A DNA stretch of 53,674 nt from a virus (IMGVR_UViG_3300022723_000142:1-53674), one strand, 5' to 3'. Positions 4,123 through 49,358 are shown, counted from the stretch's first letter. The notes: a model not told the origin generated them from the letters alone. Numbers and translations: made by a program.

Positions 4123-4570
4123 CTTCATCTTAGCTTCATATTAAAGCTTTTTCGCCATTTCTGAAAAACACCTAACTGTCACAAGGGGCTTTTATGAAGC
4201 TAAGATGAAGTAAGTATCAAAATATACAGTTTTAGGGGGAGGGTGGCACACTTCTGAGGGGGGGTGGCACACTTCGAAAATAGCAAGTGTGCCACCCCTA
4301 AAGCATTGCTGTGTAAGGATTTTGCTTAGGGTGTCACACATGGCACACTTCTTTCTGATTTAATTTACTAGACAAAATTCTCTATATTAGAGAAAAGGCA
4401 ACTGGCACAGTACTACACGCCATAGGAGATCTACTATGCACGCTCCGACTCAGATGAAGTGTGACACCTGTGCCACCCCTCTAAGAAATGCTTTAGTAGC
4501 AGTAGTTTGAGGGTGGCACACTTGCTATTTTCGAAGTGTGCCACCCCTAAAGTTTTGTGCCACCCGGTAT
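4123..4570. repeat. Non-coding structured module A: TGGCACA-box cluster, two 38-bp hairpin palindromes, AT-rich core; inverted homologue of 24612..25041
   Basis: Boxes GGGTGGCACACTTC at 4241, 4262 and 4511. Inverse boxes at 4285, 4534 and 4557. Composite box 4329-4351 with an imperfect inverse at 4456-4479. Hairpins at 4261-4298 and 4511-4547. 18-bp perfect inverted repeat 4123-4140/4193-4210. 65-bp run 4320-4384 identical to the reverse complement of module B. Confidence 0.9.
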
Positions 4571-5987: not shown

Positions 5988-6707
5988 ATGTCCTTATACA
6001 CCGAAACCGACGGGCGGCTCATCATCCCCCCGCCGTCGCACATCTCATACACAAGCTGGCCAAGACGGGAATTTGTTAGTCGAACTGGCCAGTCTTGCTG
6101 GGAGGGTTTAGCGGATTATGTCGACAGCCTCAAAGTCAAGCTGTCGGTCACTCAGCGGCGTTTTGAATACCTTCGTGACCATCCCAACCAAACGCAGGAG
6201 AACAAAAAGGCTCAGGCGCGTTTTCTAAAAGAGCGAACCCATCTAGCCATGTGCCTGGATCATTATGAGCTGGTGCTGAGTAAGCAGACTAAGCGGTCTA
6301 GCGACTTAGCGCTAAAACATGCAGCCACTGCCGCTACGATGGCCAGAGAGAACAGAGAGTACATCTCGGAGCATTATAAAGCGATAAAAAAGTTCGATAA
6401 ATGTCGGGGGCACATCAAGGCCAACCGCGAAGCAATCTCTCGCAATCAGTTGGCCATTCGAGGGTTCATAGACAACGCTCACCGGCAATCCGCGATCGCT
6501 CACCAGGTAGAACAGAATTCTGATGCGATTGTGAGCTACGCAAAAACTTTGCAGGGAGTTCAGCGCAATGTGGCTGAGTTAAAGCAGTTGCTCAACGCGC
6601 GACCAGTTCAAAAGGTGAAGCCGCCCCCGCCCCGTGAAGAACCGTGGAACGCATCAGGGTATCGACCGCCTGATTTGGCGGGAACGTACATATTAGATAG
6701 AGAGTGA
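5988..6707 (+). CDS. Hypothetical, predicted coiled-coil protein
   Basis: 239-aa ORF. Overlaps the next gene's start by 4 nt, suggesting translational coupling. Confidence 0.6.
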   Translation: MSLYTETDGRLIIPPPSHISYTSWPRREFVSRTGQSCWEGLADYVDSLKVKLSVTQRRFEYLRDHPNQTQENKKAQARFLKERTHLAMCLDHYELVLSKQTKRSSDLALKHAATAATMARENREYISEHYKAIKKFDKCRGHIKANREAISRNQLAIRGFIDNAHRQSAIAHQVEQNSDAIVSYAKTLQGVQRNVAELKQLLNARPVQKVKPPPPREEPWNASGYRPPDLAGTYILDRE

Positions 6708-7288
6708 TCATGGAAGTAAGTGAATTAATTGAAAAATATCAGGCTGGGGAACGTGACTTCAGCTGGGCAGACCTCTGCGGGGCAAACCTCAGCCGGGCAA
6801 GCCTCTGCGGGGCAAACCTCAGCTGGGCAAACCTCTGCAGCGCAAGACTCAGCCGGGCAAACCTCAGCCGGGCAAGACTCAGCCGGGCAAACTTCTGCGG
6901 GGCAGACCTCTGCGGGGCAAACCTCAACGGGACAGACCTCAGCGGGGCAGACCTCTGCGGGGCAGACCTCTGCGGGGCAAACCTCTGCCGGGCAAGCCTC
7001 AGCCGGGCAAACCTCTGCGGGGCAAACCTCTGCGGGGCGCGAGGCAACGGCAGAGAGATTTGCTCTGCACAAATAGGGAAATACGATCTAATTTGGACGG
7101 CTGAAAATCTATGGATCGGCTGTCAGTCTGCACCATTAAATGTTTGGTGGAATCGAACCCCGGAGGACATTGAGCAGATAGAACAAGGCGCAGGCGCGCT
7201 CTGGACAAAACACAGGGACTTTATTTGGCAAATGGTCGACCAATTTCCGGCTACACCCACCAATGGCAAAGCCCCTAAAAAAGCGTGA
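6704..7288 (+). CDS. Pentapeptide-repeat protein
   Basis: About 18 consecutive A(D/N)LXX units ('ADLCGANLSRASLCGANLSWANLCSARLSRANLSRARLSRANFCGADLCGANLNGTDLSGADL...') followed by a ~70-aa non-repeat C-terminus. Confidence 0.85.
   Translation: MIMEVSELIEKYQAGERDFSWADLCGANLSRASLCGANLSWANLCSARLSRANLSRARLSRANFCGADLCGANLNGTDLSGADLCGADLCGANLCRASLSRANLCGANLCGARGNGREICSAQIGKYDLIWTAENLWIGCQSAPLNVWWNRTPEDIEQIEQGAGALWTKHRDFIWQMVDQFPATPTNGKAPKKA
6761..7037 (+). repeat. 15-nt periodic tandem repeat encoding the pentapeptide units
   Basis: Reiterated gcaaacctc(a/t)gc(c/g)gg units. The repeat creates shadow ORFs in three other frames. Confidence 0.9.
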
Positions 7289-11623: not shown

Positions 11624-11734
11624 ATGGCAACTACAACCGAAGTCGGCACATCCTTAACAACTATCCTCACGATTCCTGCAAAGTTTTCCAGTCGCATCGG
11701 CATCCAGATTGAAATTGACTACTCCCCGCTCTAA
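11624..11734 (+). pseudogene. 5' fragment of a small virion-module ORF interrupted by the TnpB element
   Basis: The ATG lies 1 nt after the previous stop and encodes MATTTEVGTSLTTILTIPAKFSSRIGIQIE. The frame then runs into the element's hairpin and stops at 11732-11734. Confidence 0.5.
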
Positions 11735-11880
11735 AGAGACGGGGATTCCCCGGTCACCCGGAGAGGTTTCTGCTTCGTAGCACCTGCCTTTCGAGATTTA
11801 CTCTCTTCGGGTCTTACGGTCGCTCCACAGACTGAAACCGCTTGCCCAGCGGCCAAGACATTTATCGCAGCGTTGACATC
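11699..11880 (-). ncRNA. Predicted omega (right-end) guide RNA of the TnpB element
   Basis: Inferred from known TnpB biology: the omega RNA spans the 3' end of tnpB and the right end, then reads ~16 nt into the flank. The right-end hairpin (11723-11745) overlaps the tnpB stop. No direct evidence of transcription. Confidence 0.3.
11722..11749. repeat. Right-end subterminal hairpin motif of the TnpB element
   Basis: CTCCCCGCTCTAAAGAGACGGGGATTCC; stem TCCCCG/CGGGGA. Confidence 0.8.
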
Positions 11881-12927
11881 CCGATCATGGTGAAATCCAC
11901 ATTCAGGACAATCCCACTCTCGAATATTGAGCGGCAATCGTTGAACGACATGCCCACAGTTCGAGCAGCGCTTGGAGGAGGGAAACCAACGGTCAATTTT
12001 GACCAGCTCCCGACCATACCATTCGCTCTTATATTCAAGCTGCCTAACCAATTCACCCCAGCTAGCATCCGATATGGATTGAGCCAGGGAGTGATTTTTC
12101 ACCATATTCTTCACAGCCAAGTCTTCAACGGCAATCACTTGGTTGTCGCGCACCAATTGAGTTGTCAGCTTGTGAAGGAAATCTTTGCGAGTATCCGCAA
12201 TTTCGGCCTGCAACTTGGCTACTTTAAGCCGTGCTTTATGCCGATTGCTGGAACCTTTCAATTTGCGAGACAAAGCTTTCTGCGCTCGACGCAGACGCTT
12301 GTACTTTGCCTTAAACGTTTTGGGATTAGCGATCTTCTCACCTGTACTCAGCGTGACCAGACTGCTAACACCCAAGTCAATCCCGACCTTATTGCTGGTG
12401 CCGGGAAGATGGTTGATTTCAACATCAACCAGCAAACTCACAAACCACCTGCCGGACGGATCAAGCTTGACCGTCACCGTAGATGGTTCAGCACCTTGAG
12501 GCAACTGCTGACTCCAACGAATCGGCAACGCTTCAGAGCATTTAGCAAGGAACAGTTCACCGTCTTTCCAGCGGAAGGCAGACTTAGTGAACTCGGCACT
12601 GCCACCATTTCGCTTCTTTTTGAAGTTCGGATATTTAGTCCGACCAGCCCAAAAATTAGCAAACGCCTTTTGGAGGTGCCTCAAACCTTGCTGCAAGGGG
12701 ACGCAGCTAACTTCATTCAGGAAGTTCAGCTCATCTTCCTTCTTCCACTCAGTCAGCAATGCCGACGTTTCTTTGTACCCAATTCGCTCTTGCCTTTCAT
12801 ACCAGCCTTCAGTCCTTGCGGCCAAAGCACGATTGTATACAAGACGGGTACAGCCCAACGTTCGCCGCAGCAGGTTTTCCTGCTCGGCAGTTGGGTAAAA
12901 ACGATAGCGATAAGCACGTTGAGTCAT
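11731..12927 (-). CDS. tnpB: TnpB (IS605 OrfB-type RNA-guided endonuclease)
   Basis: 398 aa. N-terminal 'YRYRFYPTAEQENLLRRTLGCTRLVYNRAL'. RuvC-I 'VGIDLGVSS'. RuvC-II 'VIAVEDLAVKNM'. Zn ribbon 'CSNCGH...CPECGFHHDRDVNAAINV' carrying the RuvC-III Asp. Confidence 0.9.
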   Translation of the reverse strand: MTQRAYRYRFYPTAEQENLLRRTLGCTRLVYNRALAARTEGWYERQERIGYKETSALLTEWKKEDELNFLNEVSCVPLQQGLRHLQKAFANFWAGRTKYPNFKKKRNGGSAEFTKSAFRWKDGELFLAKCSEALPIRWSQQLPQGAEPSTVTVKLDPSGRWFVSLLVDVEINHLPGTSNKVGIDLGVSSLVTLSTGEKIANPKTFKAKYKRLRRAQKALSRKLKGSSNRHKARLKVAKLQAEIADTRKDFLHKLTTQLVRDNQVIAVEDLAVKNMVKNHSLAQSISDASWGELVRQLEYKSEWYGRELVKIDRWFPSSKRCSNCGHVVQRLPLNIREWDCPECGFHHDRDVNAAINVLAAGQAVSVCGATVRPEESKSRKAGATKQKPLRVTGESPSL

Positions 12928-12985
12928 GTCTCACATTGTAGTAAATGCAATTTGAGAATGCGACTAAAGTCGCCGTTCGTTTTTC

Positions 12986-13013
12986 CTCCCCGGTCTAAAG
13001 ACGCGGGGTTTCC
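12986..13013. repeat. Left-end subterminal hairpin motif of the TnpB element
   Basis: CTCCCCGGTCTAAAGACGCGGGGTTTCC; stem CCCCG/CGGGG. Same orientation as the copy at 11722. Confidence 0.8.
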
Positions 13014-13034
13014 AAACGTTTTGAGGATCTTTCC

Positions 13035-13211
13035 ATGAATTTGCCGCGTATTATCAGAGCCGATTTGGGGGCTAATGTGATCCAATTTGGCGGCTTTACC
13101 TTGTATCGAGACAGGCTATGCACCTCTCAAGACGGGGTGCGGCTTTGCGGCCCTGACCACGGTTGGGTGTTAGCCTCGCCGTGGTGTGTATGTCGATGGG
13201 GTGGAGAGTAA
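13035..13211 (+). pseudogene. 3' fragment of the ORF interrupted by the TnpB element
   Basis: 58 codons (MNLPRIIRADLGANVIQFGGFTLYRDRL...CRWGGE) ending 4 nt before the next gene. Its frame is compatible with fusion to 11624.. after removal of the element. Confidence 0.45.
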
Positions 13212-22022: not shown

Positions 22023-24524
22023 CTAAACCCAGCCATGACGACGATTAAGTAAGTCAGCATCATTTCGAGTGCGATGGTATTCGAGGCTGCACTTGCAATT
22101 CACAAAACATATCCGAGTTCCCGGCATTGACATTTGCCCCCTCAGTACAATCCCCTTGCCAGTTTCAGCGACACATTCTGAGCAGTGTTCGGCAACGCCC
22201 AACCTATTGCTGACATAGGGAAACTCAGCCACGGGATGGGCGGCATCCTGCGCCTGGTTATATAGCAGCTCGGCATCATGCACATAGAGTTTAGCCCGCG
22301 CCGAGATCGCCCCGACCGACATCACACCGCTCAATACTTCGGCACTGAACCGCCGCAGGTAGTCGTACTGCCTTAATAGTTCATCCTTTACGGTTTCTCG
22401 ATAGCGCGGCTCAATATTGCGTCGGTTGCCAAATCCGAACACGAAGAACAATGCTGCTGCCCCTGCAATGATTTCGGCTAGCCGTTCTTCCCATTGCGCC
22501 GCATCGATATCGCCCGACTCTAGCAGGGATGTTAGAGCGTCAATCTGCCCCTCATAACTATCGAGTTCAGCGGTGAGCAGTTCTAGAATCTCATCAGGCG
22601 TCACCCGGTCATCGCCATCGCGGTATTGGCCTGCATCTTCATCCCATTGCCACCCTTGTTCATCGGCCAGCGATCGCACCTCAGCCCAATCAATATCGCT
22701 CAACTCTTGAAAGTAGGCAACGCTGGGCAATCGAACGAAGTCCGGCTGAAAAAGGTCAGTATCAAACTTTTTTGCATGTTCCTCTCCCCCGTCCGCTCTT
22801 GTTGATTCAGCAGTTTTGTAATTCGCAAGCTCTTTTAATGTTAGCTCTCGCACTTCGCCCATAAACTCTTTGGGCATAGCTGAAAGATAAATGGCCTTAG
22901 CTTCATCAATTGATGAAGCACCAATAACCATCTTTTCTTCGTCGAATTTACCATTGATAACTTGGTCAATAGCAAATACTTTTTTGCTGGCCAGGTCAGT
23001 GCCCACATAAACATCAACAGCCATCCCGTCAGAGCCTTTTGTCTTTTGGAAATGCCCATAGCCAGCTTGCAAAACCTTGCCATGCCGCTTATCAAACGGA
23101 AAATACTGAAGTCCAACCCTAAAACCGTTCCAGTCAATGACCCTTTTTGTTGGGGTTGCTTCATCATTCCTATCGTTAGGCGCTGCTGTAGCCACTTCGA
23201 TTACATTCTCAATGTCTTGGCCAGTCGAGATCGCCATGCGCACCTCATCAGCGCTCACGGCCCCCGACTCAATCAGCAACTTAAATGTCTCGGCTTGCCC
23301 CTTCTTGTTTTCCTGCTTCTCCTGTGGCGTTTCGGTGTAGATACTGGGATATTCAATTTCCCAGTTACTGGGCACTGTGCCCAACGCCTCAAAGATGGCG
23401 TGGAATACGATGCGGTGGTTGCTCATAAAATCCTGAGCTTGCCAAGCCTGCACTTGTTCGGCATATGCCCGCGTTTCAGCGCCGCCGCTATCCGCCAACG
23501 CCGATTTACCCACAGTCCCCCAAATCTTATAGAAAGGTAACCCGGTGGCCGCCGTCAGCTCATCTACAATCGACTGAAAGTTCTCCTTGACGCCAGTGAA
23601 GGAGCGCTCTTGAAAGTCGCTGTTGCTGGTCTGGGCATCTTGCACCAACACCTTATGCAGACTCATCATCTGGGCGATCGAGTTCATCATATTGGTGAGT
23701 GCCGTTTCACCGCCTGGGCCAGCCAGAACATCTACCAGACCATCGATAGAAACCTTAATCAGCGAATAGGTTTGTAGCCCTTTTGAGATAGCATCCTTGG
23801 CCATATAGTGTCTATTGAAAATCTCAAATATTCCCTGAATGACGGAGTCGTGGCCTGCATCGCCTTCTAACTGTTGATCATAGGGGTGAATCTCAGCACC
23901 ATCAAACACCAGCACTCGGCTATGGTGGATGCGCTGGTTAAACCTGAAATCCTGGTTAGCATTGTCTCTGCCCTCCGTGCGGGCGATGCGGTAAAACTCC
24001 GGGTCGCTAGGATTGATAGTTGTGAAATCTGGTCGCAGCTGGTAACGATCCAGCACTGAAAAACCCTCAAAACTTCGCACCTTTCGCAGCGGCTTTTCTG
24101 GATTCTCAGAACCATTCACCCTCAGCACAATATATGCGCGTCCAAACAGGTCGGCATATTGCTTCGCCTTACGGAATGCGTCATGGCCTGACATTTGCCG
24201 ACTATAAGGGGATGCATTCTGAGAGCCCTGGTTATAGATGGCGATCGCTGCTGCTGCGTCCTGTTCGTCTCCCCCCTCATGGATGACCAACTCAACCCCT
24301 TTACGTGTCATGTCGTTAGCGGGGGCATCGATGATGCGGCGAATTAGCCACGAGCCACGGTATAGCGATCGCAACTCCACTTCAGACAGCAGCCGCACCT
24401 GCCCAACCTGAGTTGAGGTGAACGGGTCTCGGCCATGAACCCCCATACCCGTTGCCGTATTTCCTAGCAGCGAGTTACTGAGGGCGTTGGCTAGATTATC
24501 AAACCGCAGGTCAGTGTCAATCAT
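22023..24524 (-). CDS. Portal protein candidate with long C-terminal extension (possible head-morphogenesis fusion)
   Basis: First large gene downstream of terL on the same strand. The track ORF reaches 24623, but the first 33 codons run into the repeat module, so ATG 24524 (MIDTDLRFDNLANAL...) is the more plausible start. The C-terminus ends in a Cys cluster 'CSECVAETGKG...CFVNCKCSLEYH'. Confidence 0.55.
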   Translation of the reverse strand: MIDTDLRFDNLANALSNSLLGNTATGMGVHGRDPFTSTQVGQVRLLSEVELRSLYRGSWLIRRIIDAPANDMTRKGVELVIHEGGDEQDAAAAIAIYNQGSQNASPYSRQMSGHDAFRKAKQYADLFGRAYIVLRVNGSENPEKPLRKVRSFEGFSVLDRYQLRPDFTTINPSDPEFYRIARTEGRDNANQDFRFNQRIHHSRVLVFDGAEIHPYDQQLEGDAGHDSVIQGIFEIFNRHYMAKDAISKGLQTYSLIKVSIDGLVDVLAGPGGETALTNMMNSIAQMMSLHKVLVQDAQTSNSDFQERSFTGVKENFQSIVDELTAATGLPFYKIWGTVGKSALADSGGAETRAYAEQVQAWQAQDFMSNHRIVFHAIFEALGTVPSNWEIEYPSIYTETPQEKQENKKGQAETFKLLIESGAVSADEVRMAISTGQDIENVIEVATAAPNDRNDEATPTKRVIDWNGFRVGLQYFPFDKRHGKVLQAGYGHFQKTKGSDGMAVDVYVGTDLASKKVFAIDQVINGKFDEEKMVIGASSIDEAKAIYLSAMPKEFMGEVRELTLKELANYKTAESTRADGGEEHAKKFDTDLFQPDFVRLPSVAYFQELSDIDWAEVRSLADEQGWQWDEDAGQYRDGDDRVTPDEILELLTAELDSYEGQIDALTSLLESGDIDAAQWEERLAEIIAGAAALFFVFGFGNRRNIEPRYRETVKDELLRQYDYLRRFSAEVLSGVMSVGAISARAKLYVHDAELLYNQAQDAAHPVAEFPYVSNRLGVAEHCSECVAETGKGIVLRGQMSMPGTRICFVNCKCSLEYHRTRNDADLLNRRHGWV

Positions 24525-24611
24525 GGAAAGTAACAGGAAGGTTCCCTCTAGTTTACTAAATACAGAAACACTACCTATACAACAGGCAAACTTGATTAGA
24601 GACCCTGTTTT

Positions 24612-25041
24612 ATACGGTGGCACAAAACTTTAGGGGTGGCACACTTCAAAAATGGCAAGTGTGCCACCCCTAAGCCCTTGATATACAAGGATTCTTTAGG
24701 GGGGTGTCACACATGGCACACTTCATCTGGGTCGGAGCGTGCAGAGTAAATTTTCTATGACGTGTAATGCTGTGCCAGTTGCCATTCTCTCTTTTAGAGA
24801 ATTTTGTCTAGTAAATTAAATCAGAAAGAAGTGTGCCATGTGTGACACCCTAAGCAAAACTCTTGATATGTATAGCTTTGAGGGTGGCACACTTCGAAAA
24901 TAGCAAGTGTGCCACCCCCCTGAAGTGTGACACTAAAATGGTATATTTAGATACTTTTCTCAGCTTAGCTTCATAAAAGGGCGTTGTGACAATTTGGAGC
25001 TTAGGAGAAATGTATTATGGCACAATACATGTGCCAGTTGC
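24612..25041. repeat. Non-coding structured module B: inverted homologue of module A, located between terL and the portal gene
   Basis: Hairpins at 24633-24670 and 24882-24918. Perfect 23-bp inverted repeat 24702-24724/24828-24850 around a 103-bp AT-rich core. About 10 TGGCACA/TGTGCCA boxes. The reverse complement aligns with 4150-4565 at roughly 80-90% identity by eye. Confidence 0.9.
25009..25030 (+). promoter_or_regulatory. TGTATTATG..ATACA palindromic motif (copy 2)
   Basis: AATGTATT-ATGGCAC-AATACAT. Related to the copies at 53543 and 51683 and contains a TGnCACAAT extended -10-like string. Confidence 0.35.
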
Positions 25042-25129: not shown

Positions 25130-27775
25130 TTAACTGTACAGGGCATTTAGAGTGTCGACGGCTGTCCCTTCAATTAGGTCATTGATCGCAAATACCAGTG
25201 CATCAAGGCGGTTTGGGCTAGGCATTCCCGGCTGCCATGTACACATCTCACGCTCCAAATCTACAAACGTCCCAACGTGATGAACTTTCCCCGCCTCATA
25301 TTGTTGGTGCGCTGGTTCGGCCCGAATAAGTTTGCCGCGACTGGATGTAGATTCTTTCACTGCAACAGTAGGGTCAATCAGCAGGACAGTCGCTTTCACC
25401 ATGTCGCCGCCAAAGTTGCGTTCAGCTACCAGATAATTAGCTTTCAAATCATGGTATCGGTCGATCACTGCCTGGAATCTTTCATTTGGGGTTCCCTTCA
25501 AACTGTCATCGTTGAGCACATACAGATGGCCGCTCGCTGCCTTACCCACCGCAACGTTACCGGCCTCTGTCGTAGAACTGCCCGAAGGATCAACGCCGAT
25601 CACAATCCTGATCAGCTCAGGGGTGCTGGTGACACGATACGGAGTGATGTCTCTGTCTTTGTCCCATAGCCCTCCGTCCGGTTCGTCTTCATGCTGTGAT
25701 TCGGTAAGGAATGTCCTCAGCCCCCACTTATTAATCTGTCGTTCAATGACTTCGAGGTTTTGTCCTTCTGGCCATGTGGGTTTGCCGCCACTGACGCGGT
25801 AAAGGTTTTGTTTTTTCTGATCGCTCCAATACTGCTCATATTCCAGGTCTATAGCAGCGGGCTCTTCAGTAACGGTTGCCCCTAGCAATATTTCCGCCCG
25901 ACCATCAGCAACTTGAGCGATCGCGCTGTCTTTGTGAATTTTGTTTTGCACAAAAAGCACGGTGGCATCGGTGGACTCAGCAGCGAGGATGTCACGGGAT
26001 ATTGTCTTGAGCTTCTTGGCAGTGGCTTCTGGCGTGTCGTGGGTGCCGTCGATATCATCCAATATTATGAGGTCGGGACGCTGTTCCTGAATACGAGCTC
26101 CACGAATCCGGCTATTCAGTCCCACACCAACGACGCCGAACCCATTCACCGTTTGCAACCGTTGGGCTGTCCAGTTGAGGGAAGCTGAGTATTTGTTGAG
26201 GGCACGGGGGACACCCATCTGTTCCAGCAATGCCGCGATCGCCTGCACATGCAAGTCGGCTTGATCTTGAGTGCCACAGACATACAGCGCCAATCGACGT
26301 TTCAACGAGCAAGCAAAGTACGCACAGAGCTGTTCTGCGATGGTGCTGTTGTGAGTTACCAAAAGATTTGTAATTAAGTTTTGATTACGCTCAACTTGAA
26401 CATCATAAGTTTCTCTGTCTCCCACGTCCTCAATTTTGACAACTTTGTCCCAAAAAACATCGGCTTTTTCTAGCCAAACCCATTGCGGCAAAGGCTCGTA
26501 AGTGATTGCTTTTTGAAGCTTTCCCCTGGTAATGTCGTAATCCTTCCCCAGTCGAGGCCCACCAGCGTTCCGGATTTTTCGATTAGTTCCTTTTGGCAGA
26601 CCTAACCCCACTTGACGCGGATAAGTGTCAAAAAGACTGTATCTGTGCTTTTCGCAAACCTTTTGCAGTTTTTCTTTTTTTAGAATTAGCGGCATCATAT
26701 CTCTGCATCGACTTAAGCAGTTCTGATCGATCATTAGTCTCCAAGCGCCTGCATAGTCATTAGGAGCTTCGATTGTTGAACTAATGACGCCAACTTGAGC
26801 CAGCAAAATTTCAAGGTCTTTCACTAACGCCTGATTAGCTAGAGCAATCCCCATCTTGCGCTCTTCTACCCAGCCATCGGTATCAAACATAGCTGCTAAA
26901 AAAATCCACTTTTGACGCTCTGGCAACTGAAAGACAAACTTAGGCACTCTCTTTTGAGTAGCTAATTTGTCTTTAATCCCTACGTTTTTAATCCACTGAC
27001 GCCCAAAACCTTTTAAGTTGTAGCCATATATCCCACAACGCTTAACTTCCATGCCCATTGCGTTAGCACAATAAATAAAATCCCTGACTATACACTCATC
27101 TGCATTTGTAAAACTACAATTATTAGACGTTGTAGAACCCTCGGCAATCATATAAGCCAGTAACTTAACCTCTTCATCTGGCCTGTCGATTACAGCAGAA
27201 ACGCTTTTTAAGTGGCGAGGTGAGGCGATCCTATCTTGCAGCGTCAATTCCCCTGCCAGCTTCCATCCGTCAAAAGTCCGCACTTTGTGGTCAGAAGTTA
27301 AGACAACTGATTTCCCTGTTGCCGTAGTCACCTGAATGCATGGCTTGATGCCGCTAAAAACTTTAGCGATGATGGAGTCGCCTTCGATCTGCCCAGACGC
27401 CTCATTCCAAGAAAGTATTTTTTCCCCTGGCTTGATTTCAGAAATAGGAGCTAACGACCCATCGAGTAAAGACAACATGGTATTTGCATCCAAGCATTTT
27501 GCACCGCCCCTACCCCATATCTCAACACGTGGCGTTGCGGGCTGTCCTGATTCGATAGCCTGGCCCCATTCCCAAACAGCCCTATGGCGATCTCCGTTAG
27601 GGATGAGGGTACCAGGTAGAGTGCGGGATAGGAATGCTTGTGGGGTTTCGGTGGGAGATGGGATGAGGTGAGGTGGGAGTGTGGGTCTTTCGTTTGTCGG
27701 CTTTACCCCTAACTCCTCAGCTAAACCATCCCACCAACTGTCTAAGCGCTCTGTTGTTGCTCTTTTTCTTGCCAC
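25130..27775 (-). CDS. terL: Terminase large subunit interrupted by an intein
   Basis: 881 aa. P-loop-like 'WGRGGAK|C...HN|ST' is split by the intein. After removing 383 aa, the 498-aa extein is typical in size. Downstream 'LIILDDIDG' resembles Walker B. Located after terS and before the portal gene. Confidence 0.75.
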   Translation of the reverse strand: MARKRATTERLDSWWDGLAEELGVKPTNERPTLPPHLIPSPTETPQAFLSRTLPGTLIPNGDRHRAVWEWGQAIESGQPATPRVEIWGRGGAKCLDANTMLSLLDGSLAPISEIKPGEKILSWNEASGQIEGDSIIAKVFSGIKPCIQVTTATGKSVVLTSDHKVRTFDGWKLAGELTLQDRIASPRHLKSVSAVIDRPDEEVKLLAYMIAEGSTTSNNCSFTNADECIVRDFIYCANAMGMEVKRCGIYGYNLKGFGRQWIKNVGIKDKLATQKRVPKFVFQLPERQKWIFLAAMFDTDGWVEERKMGIALANQALVKDLEILLAQVGVISSTIEAPNDYAGAWRLMIDQNCLSRCRDMMPLILKKEKLQKVCEKHRYSLFDTYPRQVGLGLPKGTNRKIRNAGGPRLGKDYDITRGKLQKAITYEPLPQWVWLEKADVFWDKVVKIEDVGDRETYDVQVERNQNLITNLLVTHNSTIAEQLCAYFACSLKRRLALYVCGTQDQADLHVQAIAALLEQMGVPRALNKYSASLNWTAQRLQTVNGFGVVGVGLNSRIRGARIQEQRPDLIILDDIDGTHDTPEATAKKLKTISRDILAAESTDATVLFVQNKIHKDSAIAQVADGRAEILLGATVTEEPAAIDLEYEQYWSDQKKQNLYRVSGGKPTWPEGQNLEVIERQINKWGLRTFLTESQHEDEPDGGLWDKDRDITPYRVTSTPELIRIVIGVDPSGSSTTEAGNVAVGKAASGHLYVLNDDSLKGTPNERFQAVIDRYHDLKANYLVAERNFGGDMVKATVLLIDPTVAVKESTSSRGKLIRAEPAHQQYEAGKVHHVGTFVDLEREMCTWQPGMPSPNRLDALVFAINDLIEGTAVDTLNALYS
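26348..27496 (-). mobile_element. Intein (383 aa) with LAGLIDADG homing-endonuclease domain
   Basis: Starts at Cys94 'CLDANTMLSL' and has block B 'VLTSDHKV'. LAGLIDADG motifs 'LLAYMIAEGS' and 'FLAAMFDTDGWV'. Ends 'LLVTHN', followed by the +1 Ser. Confidence 0.85.
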
Positions 27776-39100: not shown

Positions 39101-39828
39101 GCACCCAAACTGATGACCGCAGCGGCTAACGCTTCAGGTGTCTTTTCCACCTCTTGAGTTACGCCCTTAAATGCAAGCGTGACCTGATTCCCTGCTGTTT
39201 CAGCCGTGATGCCAAATTCTTTTAATCGTTCAAATTCTCCAGTCTGGGCATCCAACACAGCCTCAACAATCTGGTCTAGCTGCTTGCCCTGACTGCTGGC
39301 AATGTCCCCTAACTGAGTTAAGACTTCATTGGTCGGCTCAATACCTCGGTTCTGCAACTTAATGAAGCCCTCGACCACTTCATCAAGCTGAAAGGGGGTA
39401 GTTGCTGCAAACTTTTCAATTCTGGATAGCGCTTGATCAGCAGCTTCAGCACTGCCTAGTGTGTTCTCAAGAACGGCTTGATATTGCTCAAACTGTGCAA
39501 AACCTTGCAAGCCGTTTGCGAAAACAGCACCAACACCAGCGGCAACGCCACCGGATACAGCAGCGCCGAATGCAAGTGTTTCGGTGGATAATCGCTCAGT
39601 ATCTTGAGCTGCTTTGTTTATGCTGCTAGAAACCTCATCAAAGCTATTGGCAAGCTTATTCGCCTCCTGAGTGGCTTCCTTGGTTTCTGTCGATAAATTT
39701 TTTAGTGACGACTGACCAGATTGATTGATTAAAGAGTTGACCCGCTCTAATTCGCGTGAAAAATTTTGCAGGTTCTTGATTGCCCGCTTACCGCCCCTAC
39801 TGCCAAAATCAATCCGTATCGTGCCCAA
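36154..39828 (-). CDS. Tail tape measure protein
   Basis: 1224 aa. Hydrophobic A/G-rich segments, very long E/A/Q/R coiled coils, and the conserved-looking core 'FQLDEVVEGFIKLQNRGIEPTNEVLTQLGDIASSQGKQLDQIVEAVLDAQTGEFERLKEFGI'. Confidence 0.85.
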   Translation of the reverse strand: MGTIRIDFGSRGGKRAIKNLQNFSRELERVNSLINQSGQSSLKNLSTETKEATQEANKLANSFDEVSSSINKAAQDTERLSTETLAFGAAVSGGVAAGVGAVFANGLQGFAQFEQYQAVLENTLGSAEAADQALSRIEKFAATTPFQLDEVVEGFIKLQNRGIEPTNEVLTQLGDIASSQGKQLDQIVEAVLDAQTGEFERLKEFGITAETAGNQVTLAFKGVTQEVEKTPEALAAAVISLGALEGVAGQMATQSEILVGRFSNLQDETGKATRAFGEFAAVGARPVVEAAIGLLQTFNNLPGPIQSTLIATTGFTGVLAAAVATIAAYNLANGKRIKQELLAATATVRGNAALAAKNATTSIATTLTAAYATATGTATAAQSAQTAATIKSATALGLVAGALASVAIAVDTFRTITASTREADEAVKGIQDSLNAVREAAGNLPDNLLGDEATQNLQAAQNELNAVQRNLDIVRGVIPGLSTAAESAARGTTIAFGEVSLAVGEVEGAAINTLRGIAQGASIPAEEIDATIAAIDNGIAALEAQEPVLESDIAIRDKQIERLEDYKNQLNGAADENENVESTTEQLTERVNDLNDALQRTQDELANAASAREAAIKEDIANGIKSLEEGEARIAASEERLLNERIASARDQIAELQAAKAQTEDPDALAEVNAEILALETQINNDRIAIADQRIQAQKEADREAENSAKEAAKAREEAAKEAEQAEKDRLAATLETFDKELARAQEVASIRIELIDQQIEANQRQQDLLSQQASLDSTLIELDRERLETALARAEATENETEVERIKGEIAAVNRDAIAQEFESKRLSLELAQAQSEAEAQRAVVLAEVAVTEARIATQKAQAQGASSEEISNLQQIEGLQQQNLQAAKDVQYTIAEIGELKSQELDAQEQIANENQKQSEFSDETADTEERKADAAKSNAGSQKDAVDLMEEQSRLAQEIADAEEKRTSQLIRALSTQEKSTEESLKQLNAIRENFKEARRAGLFSEVGGELEQAAKQLERILERGGDTGDLIDFAQNNDSAIAQQLLEGVGRGDVIDLIEADQAFEEGGDTAAQSLEGGIVSGAERAAGILEGAIANAPVGGGAIPISTPSSLPSFRSGGTLQPGVNQVHRDEYIVSPGGGESVISQARSRAITNAANREVGRQTALMERMNRELVQLRQQVAKPKVQAPANYTVFSDRPLQDAVDLEFGRLKTIAAYGGW

Positions 39829-43785: not shown

Positions 43786-44166
43786 TTGGGTTTTCTCTAT
43801 TCTACTCAACGAGTGTGGGATAGAATGAGGGAGATCGCCATTGTGAGGTTCTCCATGCCAACAGACATGCTTGTTCAGTTTGCGATCGACAAAGCCAGTA
43901 GCGCAGGGATTGAAGTGATCATTGCAGCGGTGTTGCTGTATTTAGTGAATCGCCGCATCGATACATTTGTAGGCCTATATGCTGATATCAAAACCAAAAT
44001 TGAGGCGGTTTTGGCAATGGTTGCCAATGCTCAGGGCTATGTTGATGATATTACGACCAGGGTAGAGACGTTCGCTATCGACATTGAGAAAGCGTTGGAT
44101 GATGGTAGGATTGACCAAGAGGAAGCCAGTGTGGTTCTGGATATCCTTGGCAAGCTTAAGAAATAG
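43786..44166 (+). CDS. Hypothetical protein with one hydrophobic helix
   Basis: The track start is TTG; the first ATG is at 43825. 'GIEVIIAAVLLYLVNRRI'. Confidence 0.4.
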   Translation: MGFLYSTQRVWDRMREIAIVRFSMPTDMLVQFAIDKASSAGIEVIIAAVLLYLVNRRIDTFVGLYADIKTKIEAVLAMVANAQGYVDDITTRVETFAIDIEKALDDGRIDQEEASVVLDILGKLKK

Positions 44167-44458
44167 CTTTCGTTGCGTCTCCAGCAACGAATCTCCTTAC
44201 CTCTTAGGAATTGAAAGTTACTGTGTGTACAGCAACCGTCCCAAGGGGCGGTTTTTTGTTGTCCGCGTAAAATGGAAGTATGGAAACTGACGACCATTCA
44301 CAGCGCCAAATCGACGCACTGAAAAAAGAGTTGGATCGAGTGCAAGCAAAGTGCGCTGCCGAGCAATAAGAATTGATGCTGGCATGGTATTTGGCAGGCA
44401 TTCATGTGGGCTACCGCAGGGCTTCTATCGCTAGCAGAATTCGCAGAGGTGGCGAGCA

Positions 44459-45208
44459 GTGAAATTAATCAGCAGCATCGTGCTCCGGTTCGGCCCCAAC
44501 ACGCCAACAATCGGCGGTGAATCGATCGAGTTTCGTGTATTCGAGGGTGACCCATTAGAAGCTCCTACTAATGCCAAAGTGTTAGGAGGTGCCCCCGCTG
44601 TTGCCTGGAAGCTTGGCCGCATCCGTACGCTTTGCGATGTGGCGATCGCGGACCCGATGATCTCCGGCATCCACCTATCTCTGATTTTTGACCCAGCATA
44701 TGGGGAGCGCGGTGAACCCGCTTGGTTGATTAGCGACGGGGGCTATTATCCCTGCGACCTGAAACGAAAGGGCGGCGATTTGGTCACGGCTGGATACCGG
44801 CAAAGCAGCGGGGGAACCTGGCTCAATGGCGAACAGCTAGGGGCGGAAACTCAGCACGGGCAACTGCGGCCGACGCTAAAACGTATCTATCCTCAAGACA
44901 GAATCCTGTTGTTCCCATCTGTAAAAATATTGGTTTTTGAGGGATTGCACGAAACAGAATTGCCTTGCGATGTATGGGAGGGAGATTGGCGAGATCATCC
45001 GGTAGGAGAACTCATATCTAGCCGAGTGGCAAACGCGATCGCCGACACCCCTCAGAGAAGCGAGCCCTGGTTTGTTCCCCTCCTTCGAGCGGTGTGGGAC
45101 GGGCCCTATGATGGCGCTCCAAAGTGGGTGCGCGGGCTATGGCGGGTTGGGTTGATTGCGTCTGGAGTGTATCTGGCCCCGTTGATTATTGAATGGTTGG
45201 TGAAATGA
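44459..45208 (+). CDS. FHA-domain protein with C-terminal membrane anchor
   Basis: GTG start 7 nt after GAGGTG. FHA signatures: 'LGR' (GR), 'ISGIHLSL' (SxxH) and 'SSGGTWLNGEQL' (NG). C-terminal 'LWRVGLIASGVYLAPLIIEWLV'. Confidence 0.65.
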   Translation: MKLISSIVLRFGPNTPTIGGESIEFRVFEGDPLEAPTNAKVLGGAPAVAWKLGRIRTLCDVAIADPMISGIHLSLIFDPAYGERGEPAWLISDGGYYPCDLKRKGGDLVTAGYRQSSGGTWLNGEQLGAETQHGQLRPTLKRIYPQDRILLFPSVKILVFEGLHETELPCDVWEGDWRDHPVGELISSRVANAIADTPQRSEPWFVPLLRAVWDGPYDGAPKWVRGLWRVGLIASGVYLAPLIIEWLVK

Positions 45209-45672
45209 TTAAGCCCCAATGGATGAGCTTGCCAGAATGTAACCTTACCGTTGGCAGCGATCGCCCCCTCATCAGCCATCGGCCCTACTTGATTTGCCGG
45301 TTCAAGGATAATTCAGAACAACGGGCTCAGTTTGATGTTGACTACTGGGGCGTCTCCGGCTGGATTCATCGCGGGCAGGGAAAATATATCTGGCATTGTG
45401 GACTGCCCAACAATGACCGCATTTGGATACATGGCGACAATGCCCCCGCCACCGAATCTAAGGTGCTGGTATCGCTGGAGTGCGATCGCTTGTTGACTTA
45501 CGACAATCAAGAGGTCAGGGCCGGGATTTACTTTGGTCGCTGCAAGCCTGTCGTGGGTGGCTACGAATGGCGGTTAAAGGTTTCGCGGGTCAGCCATTCT
45601 TCAGGAAACCCTAGCGAGTACCATCGGGTGTTGTCTCGGTTTGTTCGGTGGTTGCCATTGCCAGGGATTTGA
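45205..45672 (+). CDS. Hypothetical protein, middle gene of the FHA-EAL operon
   Basis: ATGA overlap with the FHA gene stop and TGATG overlap with the EAL gene start. The track lists 45193 as the start. Confidence 0.5.
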   Translation: MIKPQWMSLPECNLTVGSDRPLISHRPYLICRFKDNSEQRAQFDVDYWGVSGWIHRGQGKYIWHCGLPNNDRIWIHGDNAPATESKVLVSLECDRLLTYDNQEVRAGIYFGRCKPVVGGYEWRLKVSRVSHSSGNPSEYHRVLSRFVRWLPLPGI

Positions 45673-46853
45673 TGCTTTCGAAATTGCTAAAAAATACAGC
45701 CTTCGACCAGTGGCAGCATTTGCATGAGGTGCTGGCCAGGCGTGATTTCTACGGCGAGCTTAACGGGGGAAAACATGTTGTCACTTGGGAAGTTGCCTAC
45801 ATTAGAGGCGAGTGGCGGTTCATTTTGTTTGACGAAAACTACGATCTCCTTGTTGGAGAGGGCGTGCTGTTTCCACATCGTGACTGGACAGGAAAGACAC
45901 CATTTGAAATTGATGTTTGGTCCGTTGAGGATGCCATCAAAACCTCATCTCAGTATGTACTATGTCGGGAACAGGGCAGCGAAATTACTTATAGCGAACA
46001 TCTGCAGCTTGGTGGCGAATGGCGACACTGGAAGACGCGCCTAATGCCGGTCCCCAATGGACCTAAACAGGCGTGGAAGCTGATCGGCGTTTCAGAGCGT
46101 ATCGGGAAAATTGAGAGCAACACCCGAAAGGCGCTAGACAACAGCACATTTACGTTCCACTATCAGCCCATCATTAGAGTGTCGGGCAAGTGTAAGGACT
46201 GTCTGCTGTCGCCCGACTTAAATAGCTGCATGAATGACTGCGTTGCCGGGTATGAAGCATTAGCGCGATTCCCAGATGTAGACTATCCGCTGCATGTGGT
46301 GCTTCAGGTCGTTGCCGACATCGATCGCATGACGGAGATAACACGAAAGGCTGCAATGGATGCGGCTGAAAAGCTGGCAACACTGCCACAGTTAGAGGGC
46401 AAGTGGGTTTCCATCAATGTAGCAAGTTGCGATTTTATCCCCGAAATCGCTAGAGCAACCCATCAGTTCGCCATTGAGCCAATGAGACTGGCGATTGAGA
46501 TTACTGAAGACGCTGAAATTGATGACGAACTGATTGGGCGAATCAAAACCGCTCGACTGTTGGGGCACAACGTCGAAGTAGACGATTACGGCAAACCCCG
46601 GGCCAGCCTAGAGCGATTGCTTGGCGTTGGACTGTTCAGCATTATCAAAATTGATCGCGTGTTTATCCAGGGAATTGATGGAGATCACCGCAAACAATCC
46701 ATTGTTCGCAACACCGTCGACTTGTGCAGGGAGCTAAACATTGAGGTTGCTTGCGAGGGCGTCGAAACACGCGAAGAAATGGCAACCGTAATCGAACTGG
46801 GCATTCATTATGTTCAAGGCTATTACACGGGACGGCCCGCACCATTGCAATAA
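45672..46853 (+). CDS. EAL-domain protein (c-di-GMP phosphodiesterase) with unknown N-terminal sensor-like domain
   Basis: 'FHYQPII', 'GYEALARF', 'SINVAS', 'IEITED', 'VEVDDYGKP', 'IKIDRVF', 'ACEGVETREE' and 'VQGYYTGRP' cover the catalytic EAL signature set. The track start is GTG 45648. Confidence 0.8.
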   Translation: MLSKLLKNTAFDQWQHLHEVLARRDFYGELNGGKHVVTWEVAYIRGEWRFILFDENYDLLVGEGVLFPHRDWTGKTPFEIDVWSVEDAIKTSSQYVLCREQGSEITYSEHLQLGGEWRHWKTRLMPVPNGPKQAWKLIGVSERIGKIESNTRKALDNSTFTFHYQPIIRVSGKCKDCLLSPDLNSCMNDCVAGYEALARFPDVDYPLHVVLQVVADIDRMTEITRKAAMDAAEKLATLPQLEGKWVSINVASCDFIPEIARATHQFAIEPMRLAIEITEDAEIDDELIGRIKTARLLGHNVEVDDYGKPRASLERLLGVGLFSIIKIDRVFIQGIDGDHRKQSIVRNTVDLCRELNIEVACEGVETREEMATVIELGIHYVQGYYTGRPAPLQ

Positions 46854-46855
46854 AA

Positions 46856-46873
46856 AGCCCCTCGCGGGGGGCT
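46856..46873. terminator. GC hairpin after the EAL gene
   Basis: AGCCCC..GGGGCT with a preceding A run. Sits between convergent transcription units. Confidence 0.45.
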
Positions 46874-46991: not shown

Positions 46992-47585
46992 CTAGGAACG
47001 TCGGCAGCGTAGAAGCCCGCGCTTGACGCGCTTTCCAGACGACTTCCATCCTTCGGGTTTTTCGCCGTAAACGGGGGTCTCATCCAGGTCTAGCGCCGAA
47101 GCCTTTGATGTATAGCTTTCCTCCTGTTCAATAAACTCAATCCCGCAAAGCTCGCAAAGATGTTGAATGCGTTTTTTGAGCCTGGCGGTCGGTACAGAAA
47201 CAAACTTTTGATTCGTCTTGCGCCCCATCTCAGCGCCCTGCTTTTGCCCCTTGTTCCAGCCAAAAACTAGAGTGCCAATGTGGTTTTCTAGGCAGTAATT
47301 GATGACCGTCCGAGCCGCTTTATTGACTGCATCTCGCATCTGGCGATTACGCTTGCCCGTAATGCGGTCTAGCAGGTTGCACCAAAACCCTTGAGGCTTG
47401 CCCTCTTTAATGTTGGCAACCCGTTTGTTGTACCACTGGTTCAGAGACTTGAGATGCTTGCCGTCAACAATGAATGCGTTTCCTAGACTGTCTGTGCAAG
47501 TCAGCCAGTTATCTAAGCCGGGGTCAATTGAGCAAAAAGATCGGACGGTTCCTTTTACGCTGGCGAATTTCACGACTAAGGACAT
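46992..47585 (-). pseudogene. Truncated, decayed TnpB (RuvC-I/II region only)
   Basis: 'CSIDPGLDNWLT' (RuvC-I) and 'EQEESYTSKAS' (RuvC-II). It lacks the N-terminal ~170 aa, the Zn ribbon and RuvC-III. A +1-frame continuation 'FYAADVPSAMADAV' looks like a degenerate NADVNGA motif. Confidence 0.6.
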
Positions 47586-47970
47586 TTGTTAAAACATCGC
47601 GTTTTAACAAATGGAACGCGATCGCGTGCGCCGCCTTGCCTTGCCCAATAAACCCGTGTTGCAAAACTCGTTTTTCAAACCTGCTACCGGCGCATCCTTC
47701 AAGATATGGCAGTTGGGCATATTCATTGGCAAACCAGCGAACCCACTCGGTTGTCTGCCGAATGCCAGTACCAGTGTCGATATGCAGAATATGAGTGATC
47801 GGGATGTTCAGCGCCTTGGCGGCGTAATATGTGGCGCGGCTGTCGTCTCCGCCACTCATGGCCAGCACCACTGCATAGGGCTGAGGATATTGGGCGATCG
47901 CCTGCTGCCATACTTGGCGACTTGATTCTAATGTCGTCGCTGCCCAGTCTTGATATTCGGATAAGTTCAT
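47524..47970 (-). pseudogene. PAPS-reductase/PP-loop family protein, C-terminally truncated
   Basis: PP-loop 'VVLAMSGGDDSRA'. The 148-aa ORF ends where the TnpB remnant begins (62-nt overlap), short of the usual family length. Confidence 0.5.
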
Positions 47971-48569: not shown

Positions 48570-49358
48570 CTAAGAAACTCCTATACGAATGGGATTAAAC
48601 GGTAAGTCCGGCAGACTGCGTGCAAACTGTTGAGCCCGTCGCTCGTCAAAACTTTGGGCAGTCTCAATGACGAGCAGGTTTTCAGCAGAAAAGCCTTGCT
48701 CTATCGGGTCAACTATCGGTCTAAATAAATCGATCATTCCCGGATGGCAACCCGGCTGTAAGTTGTCGCCTGCGTCTCCAAAGATATGCTTAAAATGCCA
48801 CACTTCTTCTGGCTGGAACTCAACAACATTGGGCATTTGCCATTTAATCTGCTGGCATTTAGGCAGCTGGGCATATTTGCCCCGTAGCCAACCCCAAACA
48901 TGCACAGGCTCTCTTAACCTAGGTTCGTGCAATGGACTAATCATTGTCACGTTTGGTCCTACCATGCCGCTCCAATCACTATCGGTTGATAGCAAGTAAT
49001 GCTTGCTTCCCGGCAGCATCCGCACAATGGCGGCGGCGATGTCGTCTGCCTCAAATTCTGGGTAGCCTTCTGTCACACATCCTAAGTCTTCTAGTAAATC
49101 CAAAGTTGGGGAGATGTCTAATTTGTGGCTTGTGCGATTAGCCTTATACTCCGGCTCAAATCGCGATCTCCAATAAGGCTTGGAGTCCAGACACCAGATC
49201 GGGGCCAACGGAAAAGCGCTATTCAGGAACAGCCGCTCTTGAATATATAGAATGAGCGCTTTTCGAGCGTCTTGATTATCAAGCATATCGAATCGTTCAA
49301 GGCACCCTTCCAAGAAGTAGGCAATGCAAGAGGCATCGATAATGAGTGTGTTCATCAT
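48570..49358 (-). CDS. 5'-3' exonuclease / flap endonuclease (FEN, PIN-like)
   Basis: 'LIIDASCIAY', 'YKANR', 'PEFEADDIAAAI' and 'LLSTDSDW' match 53EXO/T5 D15-type motifs. Confidence 0.7.
   Translation of the reverse strand: MMNTLIIDASCIAYFLEGCLERFDMLDNQDARKALILYIQERLFLNSAFPLAPIWCLDSKPYWRSRFEPEYKANRTSHKLDISPTLDLLEDLGCVTEGYPEFEADDIAAAIVRMLPGSKHYLLSTDSDWSGMVGPNVTMISPLHEPRLREPVHVWGWLRGKYAQLPKCQQIKWQMPNVVEFQPEEVWHFKHIFGDAGDNLQPGCHPGMIDLFRPIVDPIEQGFSAENLLVIETAQSFDERRAQQFARSLPDLPFNPIRIGVS

Follow-up and report, generated by a model that had tools for sequence, protein, structure and literature searches.

A conserved FHA–EAL gene cassette in a cyanophage-like genome and its possible role in host cyclic di-GMP signalling

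Introduction

Why would a phage keep, side by side, a putative reader of phosphorylated proteins and an enzyme-type domain directed at a bacterial second messenger? This question is raised by IMGVR_UViG_3300022723_000142:1-53674, a viral DNA of 53,674 nt (the whole stretch that was analysed, here called the window). Between positions 44459 and 46853, three genes on the + strand encode an FHA-domain protein, a small protein of 155 residues and a protein ending in an EAL domain, the domain of cyclic di-GMP (c-di-GMP) phosphodiesterases. It will be argued that they form part of an accessory cassette that is conserved among cyanophage-like tailed phages and that would hydrolyse c-di-GMP of the host at the membrane, under control by phosphothreonine. 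Judged from the sequence, this reading is given a probability of roughly 0.55.

A three-gene cassette in a complete phage genome

The three genes are as follows:

44459..45208, + strand: gene 1, predicted tail-anchored FHA protein, 249 residues, GTG start at 44459
45205..45672, + strand: gene 2, predicted soluble all-beta protein, half of it DUF551-like, 155 residues (from homologues and an AlphaFold model)
45672..46853, + strand: gene 3, PAS-like N-terminal domain followed by EAL, 393 residues

The genes are chained by the overlaps that the first-pass annotation had described, at the same coordinates: ATGA at 45205-45208 joins genes 1 and 2, and TGATG at 45670-45674 joins genes 2 and 3. A further overlap, GTGA at 44459-44462, lies at the start of gene 1. 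An independent gene call on a contig of the Logan assemblies gave the same products of 249, 155 and 393 residues. With overlapping stops and starts, a single strand and no + strand terminator-like site inside 44459-46853, the trio has the features expected of a translationally coupled operon. Its position between tail and replication genes is also as had been claimed, with a minus-strand tape measure gene at 36154-39828 on one side and a DNA polymerase gene at 49355-51652 on the other.

The ends of the window are identical over 127 bp, which marks it as a complete genome, either circularly permuted or terminally redundant. That it belongs to a phage is borne out by PHROG profile matches to a head protease, major capsid protein, portal, large terminase, tape measure, DNA polymerase and primase; a helicase and a pentapeptide-repeat protein are also among its products. 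No near-identical DNA was found in GenBank phages, no integrase family matched among the window open reading frames (ORFs) scanned, no tRNA genes were found in the window, and Rfam gave no riboswitch or other RNA family in the cassette region or the whole window.

A cyanobacterial host, as first proposed, is supported by two observations. The HIP1 octamer GCGATCGC is the commonest 8-mer of the window, with 50 copies where base composition predicts 0.83, and the nearest portal proteins among GenBank phages are those of Synechococcus phage S-CBS4 and Planktothrix phage PaV-LD (about 25% identity). An identical 11.4-kb segment is present in the Logan assembly of run SRR23862443, and the exact gene 3 protein is recorded both from JGI and from that assembly. 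This run is grouped with metagenomes of Namib Desert salt-pan mats and halite (bioRxiv 10.1101/2022.02.18.481119). Because of the HIP1 count, the portal matches and this listing, the window represents a novel tailed phage whose host is most likely a HIP1-rich cyanobacterium living in a microbial mat, a host assignment drawn from composition and distant homology.

The EAL protein

The domains of gene 3 lie as follows:

45870..46061, + strand: PAS-like region, residues 67-130, below threshold
46122..46838, + strand: EAL domain, residues 151-389, from Pfam and from alignment to DosP, Lmo0131 and 4rni
46191..46241, + strand: Cys-rich insertion, residues 174-190 (C174-K-D-C177 ... C186-M-N-D-C190), in the hairpin before the EAL motif

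The Pfam EAL profile (PF00563) matches with 126.6 bits against a cutoff of 31.3 (E=1.3e-36), from position 4 to position 236 of its 236 positions. The catalytic set is present: E195-A-L, R199, N249, E276-x-x-E279, D304-D305, K326, E362 and Q382. The motifs align with the solved EAL domains of DosP, Lmo0131 and the Motility regulator chain (4rni), and E195, R199, N249, E276, E279, D304, D305, K326, E362 and Q382 are invariant in four phage EAL proteins with 33-47% identity to gene 3. The earlier claim of a complete catalytic signature therefore holds at every residue, and the invariant pattern is in keeping with an active phosphodiesterase.

Loop 6 departs from the canon. Gene 3 has DDYGKPRASL, which does not match DDFG(T/A)GYSS, and its relatives have DDYGTGRSNL, DDFGTERAGL and DDFGEVNAGF, so that just D-D-[FY]-G is kept. 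The canonical loop 6 is tied to dimerisation and activity, and work on RocR reportedly found that changes in this loop can abolish activity.

These features raise the possibility that the EAL domain is a c-di-GMP sensor and not an enzyme. The cassette would then read the c-di-GMP and phosphorylation state of the host, for example whether it is sessile or motile, and use it to time lysis or to set a developmental switch. The non-canonical and variable loop 6 is in keeping with this, as are the sensor-like PAS region and the existence of inactive EAL receptors, since LapD and a FimX-type 'cyclic dimeric GMP binding protein' are among the weaker matches of gene 3. Receptor-type EAL domains usually lose several residues of the catalytic set, however, whereas here the metal-binding, substrate-binding and general-base residues are invariant at 33-47% identity, which fits selection for catalysis. 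The top matches are also active enzymes and not receptors. A sensor role is therefore considered unlikely, and an active phosphodiesterase remains the preferred assignment for gene 3.

The N-terminal domain, first described as sensor-like but of no recognisable kind, is weakly PAS-like. PAS_4 (PF08448) reaches 19.5 bits (E=1.2e-3), below its cutoff of 23.1, and the orthologous region of a second phage contig, L083, scores 22.6 bits with PAS_4, also below that cutoff, and 17.4 bits with PAS_3. No PDB sequence matched this region of gene 3. The four-cysteine insertion could be a metal or redox site; it is missing in the closest relative, P0002, and is shorter, with fewer cysteines, in L083.

Gene 3 is at most 35% identical to any cellular EAL protein and scores far under every NCBIfam equivalog cutoff. 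No match was obtained in IMG/VR, whether with the EAL protein, its family alignment, two motif patterns of gene 2 or the pattern AGYEALxR[WF]P[DE]. GenBank entry DQ115821.1 (1,670 bp, unannotated, labelled Cyanobacteria phage AS-1) has an EAL-like stretch with 24.6% identity over 66% of gene 3, and may represent another cyanophage EAL or host DNA.

The FHA protein

Two segments of gene 1 are of interest:

44606..44845, + strand: FHA domain, residues 50-129, with G53-R54, S69, H72 and N123, and an insertion common with L083
45146..45202, + strand: C-terminal hydrophobic segment, residues 230-248 (VGLIASGVYLAPLIIEWLV), predicted membrane anchor

The first-pass annotation saw in gene 1 a membrane-anchored FHA protein with GR, SxxH and NG signatures, and each part of this description found support. 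The Pfam FHA profile (PF00498) scores 24.3 bits against a cutoff of 20.7 (E=4.3e-5). The set of residues that contacts phosphothreonine is present as G53-R54, S69-x-x-H72 and N123-G124; G53, R54, S69 and H72 are invariant in all four FHA homologues, and N123 is present in three of them. Residues 230-248 have a mean Kyte-Doolittle value of 1.89 over 19 residues, and a C-terminal hydrophobic 19-mer of at least 1.83 is found in all four proteins. The residue pattern of gene 1 thus fits a working phosphopeptide reader.

Homologues of gene 1 on three other contigs, L083, L087 and L001, score 25.5, 52.8 and 28.2 bits, respectively, with the FHA profile, and gene 1 is 33% identical to the L083 protein over 176 residues. 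When a profile of the four proteins was compared with the PDB, FHA domains were the sole matches. A word-indexed homology search with gene 1 recovered only the protein itself, and no homologue was found outside this phage group among 5.8 billion clusters. By tblastn, neither gene 1 nor gene 2 has a match in GenBank phages.

The middle gene

Gene 2 had been described as a protein without recognisable motif. This stands insofar as Pfam, PHROGs and NCBIfam returned nothing and a word-indexed search found only the protein itself, but not insofar as the protein has homologues and a fold that can be compared. An exhaustive HMMER scan of 1.84 billion representatives recovered six relatives of 150-175 residues with 30-40% identity. 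AlphaFold confidence rose from a predicted local distance difference test (pLDDT) score of 40 with the single sequence to a pLDDT of 82.6 and a predicted template modelling score of 0.79 with the seven-sequence alignment, and the model is all-beta.

A Foldseek search of BFVD with this model placed a DUF551 protein at rank 1 (E=8.8e-3, probability 1.00), in an alignment of 81 columns that covers about half of the 155-residue model, and two further DUF551 proteins were in the top five. The Pfam DUF551 profile (PF04448) matches one of the seven family members (E=0.0033) and not the window protein. Against the PDB, Foldseek found nothing significant for the model, with weak SH3-like or ribosomal L2-like matches. 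Weak but convergent support thus suggests that gene 2 is DUF551-like. Twelve matches to the gene 2 motif in a genome collection were taken as chance; none is cyanobacterial, and the family hidden Markov model gives 22.6 bits at best.

In all six phage or metagenome contexts, homologues of gene 2 overlap or abut the gene upstream, through ATGA, TAATG, TGATG or TTGA. The upstream partner varies. On a 1.1-kb contig (L091, positions 3-1030), a homologue is coupled by TAATG to a pilin-like gene with the PF07963 N-terminal methylation motif (E=5.4e-7), a pairing that hints at a link between the gene 2 family and pilus biology. On L086, a homologue follows a non-FHA gene. A lone homologue of 169 residues (1007-1516 in L088) lies between DUF3122 and ribulose-phosphate 3-epimerase genes on L088-L090, a setting that looks like a cyanobacterial chromosome; because of this copy, the family does not appear to be restricted to phages.

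Recurrence of the cassette in divergent phages

Do the three genes belong together? All or some of them recur side by side in genomes that are otherwise unrelated, every one of which is HIP1-rich:

L083, 65-kb phage contig that encodes a tape measure and a lysozyme: coiled-coil protein of 85 residues, FHA protein of 271, gene 2 homologue of 153 and PAS-EAL protein of 365 (EAL 155 bits), adjacent or overlapping
L087, phage contig with tape measure: ZapB/TSC22-like coiled coil of 68 residues, FHA protein of 196, gene 2 homologue, an inserted minus-strand DUF5131 gene, and EAL protein of 261 (100 bits)
L001, Tara scaffold that also carries a P2-type tail gene and an M23 peptidase: FHA protein, with a C-terminal anchor of the same kind, 4 nt upstream of EAL, without gene 2
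L084 and L085, phage-like contigs: gene 2 homologue after a 95-residue non-FHA gene, beside a divergently oriented GGDEF-EAL gene

The trio is thus found in L083 and L087, the FHA-EAL pair in L001, which carries the closest EAL relative, P0002, at 44% identity, and gene 2 with GGDEF-EAL in L085. The EAL proteins of the window and L083 align over 347 residues, N-terminal domain included. By BLASTP, the window and L083 share the trio, the N-terminus of the tape measure, one small gene and no more, while gene 2 and EAL are the sole proteins shared with L087. Conservation of the cassette is therefore not plain genome synteny. The 80 generic EAL loci (at most 32% identity) that a metagenome scan with the EAL alignment provided as background contained no FHA-like ORF, in a control of limited sensitivity that used a crude four-protein FHA profile. 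A 166-residue gene upstream of FHA in L001 was examined as an equivalent of gene 2 and shows no similarity. The three points on which the first-pass annotation had been staked, namely profile support for FHA and EAL, alignment of the EAL residues and co-occurrence of the trio elsewhere, all came out in its favour.

Alternatively, the three genes might be neighbours without any relation, or DNA carried in by a mobile element, with no joint function for the phage. At 139 nt downstream of the cassette there is a truncated TnpB gene, directly adjoining a truncated gene resembling 3'-phosphoadenosine 5'-phosphosulfate (PAPS) reductase, the Logan assembly breaks at this remnant, and accessory regions of phages are mosaic. 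Yet the same gene order occurs in phages without the TnpB remnant that otherwise have almost nothing in common with the window, and the start/stop overlaps are conserved. HIP1 is at least as dense in the cassette, with 4 sites in 2.4 kb, as in the genome at large, and no close cellular source was found for any of the three genes among 5.8 billion clusters. This alternative is therefore considered highly improbable. Because the same gene set recurs in very divergent phages, the trio is probably a real tool, a so far undescribed one, for rewiring second-messenger signalling in the host.

Boundaries of the cassette

The regions on either side of the three genes contain the following:

44234..44263, + strand: terminator-like hairpin with T-run, 8-bp stem AACCGTCCCAAGGGGCGGTT then TTTTGTTGTC
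44280..44369, + strand: small ORF, 29 residues, coiled-coil-like (METDDHSQRQIDALKKELDRVQAKCAAEQ), ending at an in-frame TAA
44376..44462, + strand: small ORF, 28 residues, same frame as the preceding one, its TGA overlapping the GTG of gene 1
44445..44448, + strand: GAGG, Shine-Dalgarno-like, 10 nt 5' of the gene 1 GTG (direct reading)
46856..46873, strand not assigned: GC-rich hairpin, 3 nt past the gene 3 stop, T-run on the minus strand only

The terminator-like site at 44234-44263 is predicted to end the preceding + strand gene (43786-44166) and to separate the cassette as a unit of its own. Between this site and gene 1, a frame of 60 codons (44280-44462) is divided by an in-frame TAA (44367-44369) into the ORFs of 29 and 28 residues. 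The sequence of 44376-44462 and the TAA base are identical in the independent Logan assembly. In L083 and L087, the same slot is occupied by intact coiled-coil ORFs of 85 and 68 residues, which overlap the start of the FHA gene. The 28-residue ORF contains LAWYLAGIHVG, similar to LSWYHAGVKVG at the C-terminus of the 68-residue coiled-coil protein of L087 (pairwise E=2e-4). The ORF at 44280-44369 is possibly, and this is tentative, the 5' half of a split leader gene.

A Shine-Dalgarno sequence and a GTG start had been proposed for gene 1, and both are there (GAGG at 44445-44448, GTG at 44459), but a small ORF overlaps that start. Because of this GTGA overlap with the ORF at 44376-44462, it is not clear that gene 1 is the first cistron, and it probably is not. 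No sigma-70 promoter was predicted between 44263 and 44459, a result that is uninformative for cyanobacteria.

The terminal hairpin also needs qualification. It exists at 46856-46873, but it has no U-tract on the + strand, and its stability is no better than that of shuffled sequences (z=-0.42). It may serve the convergent minus-strand genes, or both directions.

Mobile-element remnants and other features of the window

The region downstream of the cassette and several other parts of the genome hold further features of note. These are listed by subject:

46992..47585, - strand: 197-residue ORF whose match to the model of RNA-guided TnpB is confined to its C-terminal half, positions 195-366 of 389
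47524..47970, - strand: 148-residue PAPS-reductase-like ORF, truncated-looking, its end overlapped for about 60 nt by the TnpB fragment
11731..12927, - strand: full-length IS605-type TnpB (HTH_OrfB_IS605, OrfB_IS605, Cas12f1-like TNB) within the + strand head/structural module
11842..13038, + strand: equally long antisense ORF opposite the full-length TnpB
4156..4564 and 24616..25012: inverted repeats of about 400-850 nt, about 80-83% complementary, flanking a 20-kb block of head genes
6704..7288: pentapeptide-repeat protein (Pfam E=1.6e-28) with 15-nt tandem units, 17 registers detected
22023..24623, - strand: portal ORF, 866 residues, also with minor-head-protein-like and phrog_24776 regions
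25130..27775, - strand: large terminase ORF, 881 residues, with the terminase match at residues 477-874 and a long N-terminal extension with weak helicase-like matches

The TnpB fragment, which lies 139 nt downstream of the EAL gene, appears to be an insertion sequence scar. One end of the Logan contig of this phage falls within it, at window position 47046. The two TnpB genes were considered as repeats of each other, and no sequence similarity was found between them. Each of the inverted repeats holds two copies of a near-perfect palindrome (GGGGTGGCACACTT...AAGTGTGCCACCCC), and the other end of the Logan contig (about 24889) is in one of these repeats. The repeats may act as terminators in both directions or as sites of inversion. 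Long ORFs that overlap 6704-7288 in other frames or on the other strand are artefacts of the repeats.

Proposed function

How might these parts work together? Four parts would make up the cassette: a short leader ORF, an FHA protein anchored by its tail, a beta protein of DUF551-like type and a PAS-like–EAL enzyme. The EAL protein, if it is an active phosphodiesterase, would lower c-di-GMP in the host during infection. The FHA protein is predicted to sit in the cytoplasmic membrane with its FHA domain on the cytoplasmic side, where it might bind phosphothreonine on a host protein. The phospho-ligand is presumed to be made by the host because no phage kinase is present among the scanned ORFs; the Pfam and PHROG matches of the other scanned window ORFs of at least 100 residues include no kinase, phosphatase, GGDEF or PilZ protein. 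Placement of the FHA domain would thus tie the location or the activity of the enzyme to Ser/Thr-kinase signalling of the host, and the gene 2 protein might act as an adaptor or regulator between the FHA and EAL proteins. In cyanobacteria, c-di-GMP governs phototaxis and aggregation (PMC4284465). A mat-forming host in which c-di-GMP is kept low would be expected to enter a motile state, with less aggregation and matrix, and with altered behaviour of type IV pili.

A more specific version of this mechanism can be imagined. The cassette would be a membrane device that reads, through FHA, a host Ser/Thr-kinase event triggered by infection, and removes c-di-GMP locally at the type IV pilus or the polysaccharide secretion apparatus, with the DUF551-like protein as adaptor, which would make it the first protein of this widespread phage domain with a defined role. 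The benefit would be a block to superinfection together with release of progeny from the mat matrix, or the disarming of a defence that depends on a kinase or a cyclic dinucleotide. At this level of detail the proposal is distinctly unlikely to be right as a whole.

A role in counter-defence could also be envisaged. The enzyme would destroy a cyclic-dinucleotide immune signal, be it the c-di-GMP of a cyclic oligonucleotide-based antiphage signalling system (CBASS) with STING or a different cyclic nucleotide. Otherwise, phospho-proteins of a kinase-based defence would be tied up by the FHA protein. Degradation of immune nucleotides by phages is known from Acb1 and Apyc1, and the solved EAL structure 6ifq, deposited as 'cyclic di nucleotide phosphodiesterase', was matched at E=2.4e-16. 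The FHA partner points to kinase signalling, and there are prophage or host kinase modules that act in defence (PMC11341870). Against this, none of six cassette proteins scanned has a match in PADLOC-DB, and genes 1 and 2 resemble no known anti-defence family. EAL enzymes have been characterised as specific for c-di-GMP, and CBASS that uses c-di-GMP has been reported in lineages without housekeeping c-di-GMP signalling, unlike cyanobacteria. We know of no EAL enzyme described as an anti-CBASS factor, and nothing found here speaks specifically for removal of an immune signal, a role that the first-pass annotation had also suggested. Counter-defence is thus very unlikely.

Hydrolysis of host c-di-GMP under phosphothreonine-dependent control is preferred to these alternatives, and several points weigh against it. 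The main caution concerns the atypical loop 6 of the EAL domain, which varies within the family. The FHA score of gene 1 barely clears the Pfam cutoff, and the assignments of gene 2 to DUF551 and of the N-terminal region of gene 3 to PAS are below threshold. The cassette is modular and not fixed, since L001 lacks gene 2 and L087 has a gene inserted before EAL; homologues of gene 2 also occur behind non-FHA genes, or alone in what looks like a cyanobacterial chromosome. Parts of the cassette are found in just five phage-like contigs, which makes for thin statistics, and the host of the phage is assigned from composition.

If the proposal is correct, it would have several consequences. Bacteria change between sessile and motile life chiefly under the control of c-di-GMP, which in cyanobacteria acts in light-controlled motility and aggregation. 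The cassette would then be a concrete case of a virus taking over the sessile/motile decision in mat- or bloom-forming phototrophs. The pairing with FHA suggests cross-talk between Ser/Thr phosphorylation and c-di-GMP, a link that to our knowledge is poorly documented in any bacterium. Gene 2 gives DUF551, a common phage domain without assigned function, a conserved and testable genetic context. The EAL protein is also a compact candidate tool to lower c-di-GMP in cyanobacteria.

Comparison with known systems

Sensor-linked EAL phosphodiesterases (DosP/PdeO, Lmo0131, 4rni, RocR) resemble gene 3 in their full catalytic set, with motif-for-motif alignment in the case of DosP, Lmo0131 and 4rni. 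The likeness to DosP extends to a putative sensor-type N-terminal domain, weakly PAS-like in gene 3, before the EAL. In contrast to these proteins, gene 3 has no GGDEF domain, has an atypical loop 6 and a Cys-rich insertion, and is encoded by a phage together with FHA and DUF551-like partners.

For gene 1, the closest FHA domains by profile are that of KAPP (1mzk), followed by cyanobacterial Slr1951 (3hx1) and Rv1747, which have in common with it the G-R, S-x-x-H and N-G motifs. Gene 1 is very divergent from them, with PDB E-values of 0.005-0.3, and differs in an insertion of about 20 residues, common to L083 only, and in the predicted C-terminal tail anchor.

Gene 2 and DUF551 both have a C-terminal W-[LVM]-P-L-P ending. 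Gene 2 is about twice as long as DUF551, with an extra N-terminal beta half, its matches are below threshold, and no solved structure matches it. DUF551 is an uncharacterised portable phage domain that is joined to various partners (PMC10834534); it occurs, for example, in Shiga-toxin phage Ea22 variant 2 and in the E. coli prophage protein YfdS.

Manipulation of host c-di-GMP by phages has a precedent in Pseudomonas, where phage peptides bind the diguanylate cyclase YfiN (PMC8085984). These peptides act on a host cyclase and are not enzymatic, while the effect of the cassette is predicted from its genes. EAL domains are already present in phage families, namely PHROGs 11823 and 22021, whose profiles are about 690-780 residues long and match through the EAL part alone. 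Neither the YfiN-binding peptides nor these PHROGs have been described with FHA or DUF551-like partners. No cassette of FHA, DUF551-like and EAL genes was found in the literature or in GenBank phages, where genes 1 and 2 have no match, and no relative was found in IMG/VR, in agreement with the first impression that the three-gene architecture is undescribed. The individual domains belong to known families; what is new is their conserved combination, the tail-anchored FHA protein and the genetic context of the DUF551-like protein.

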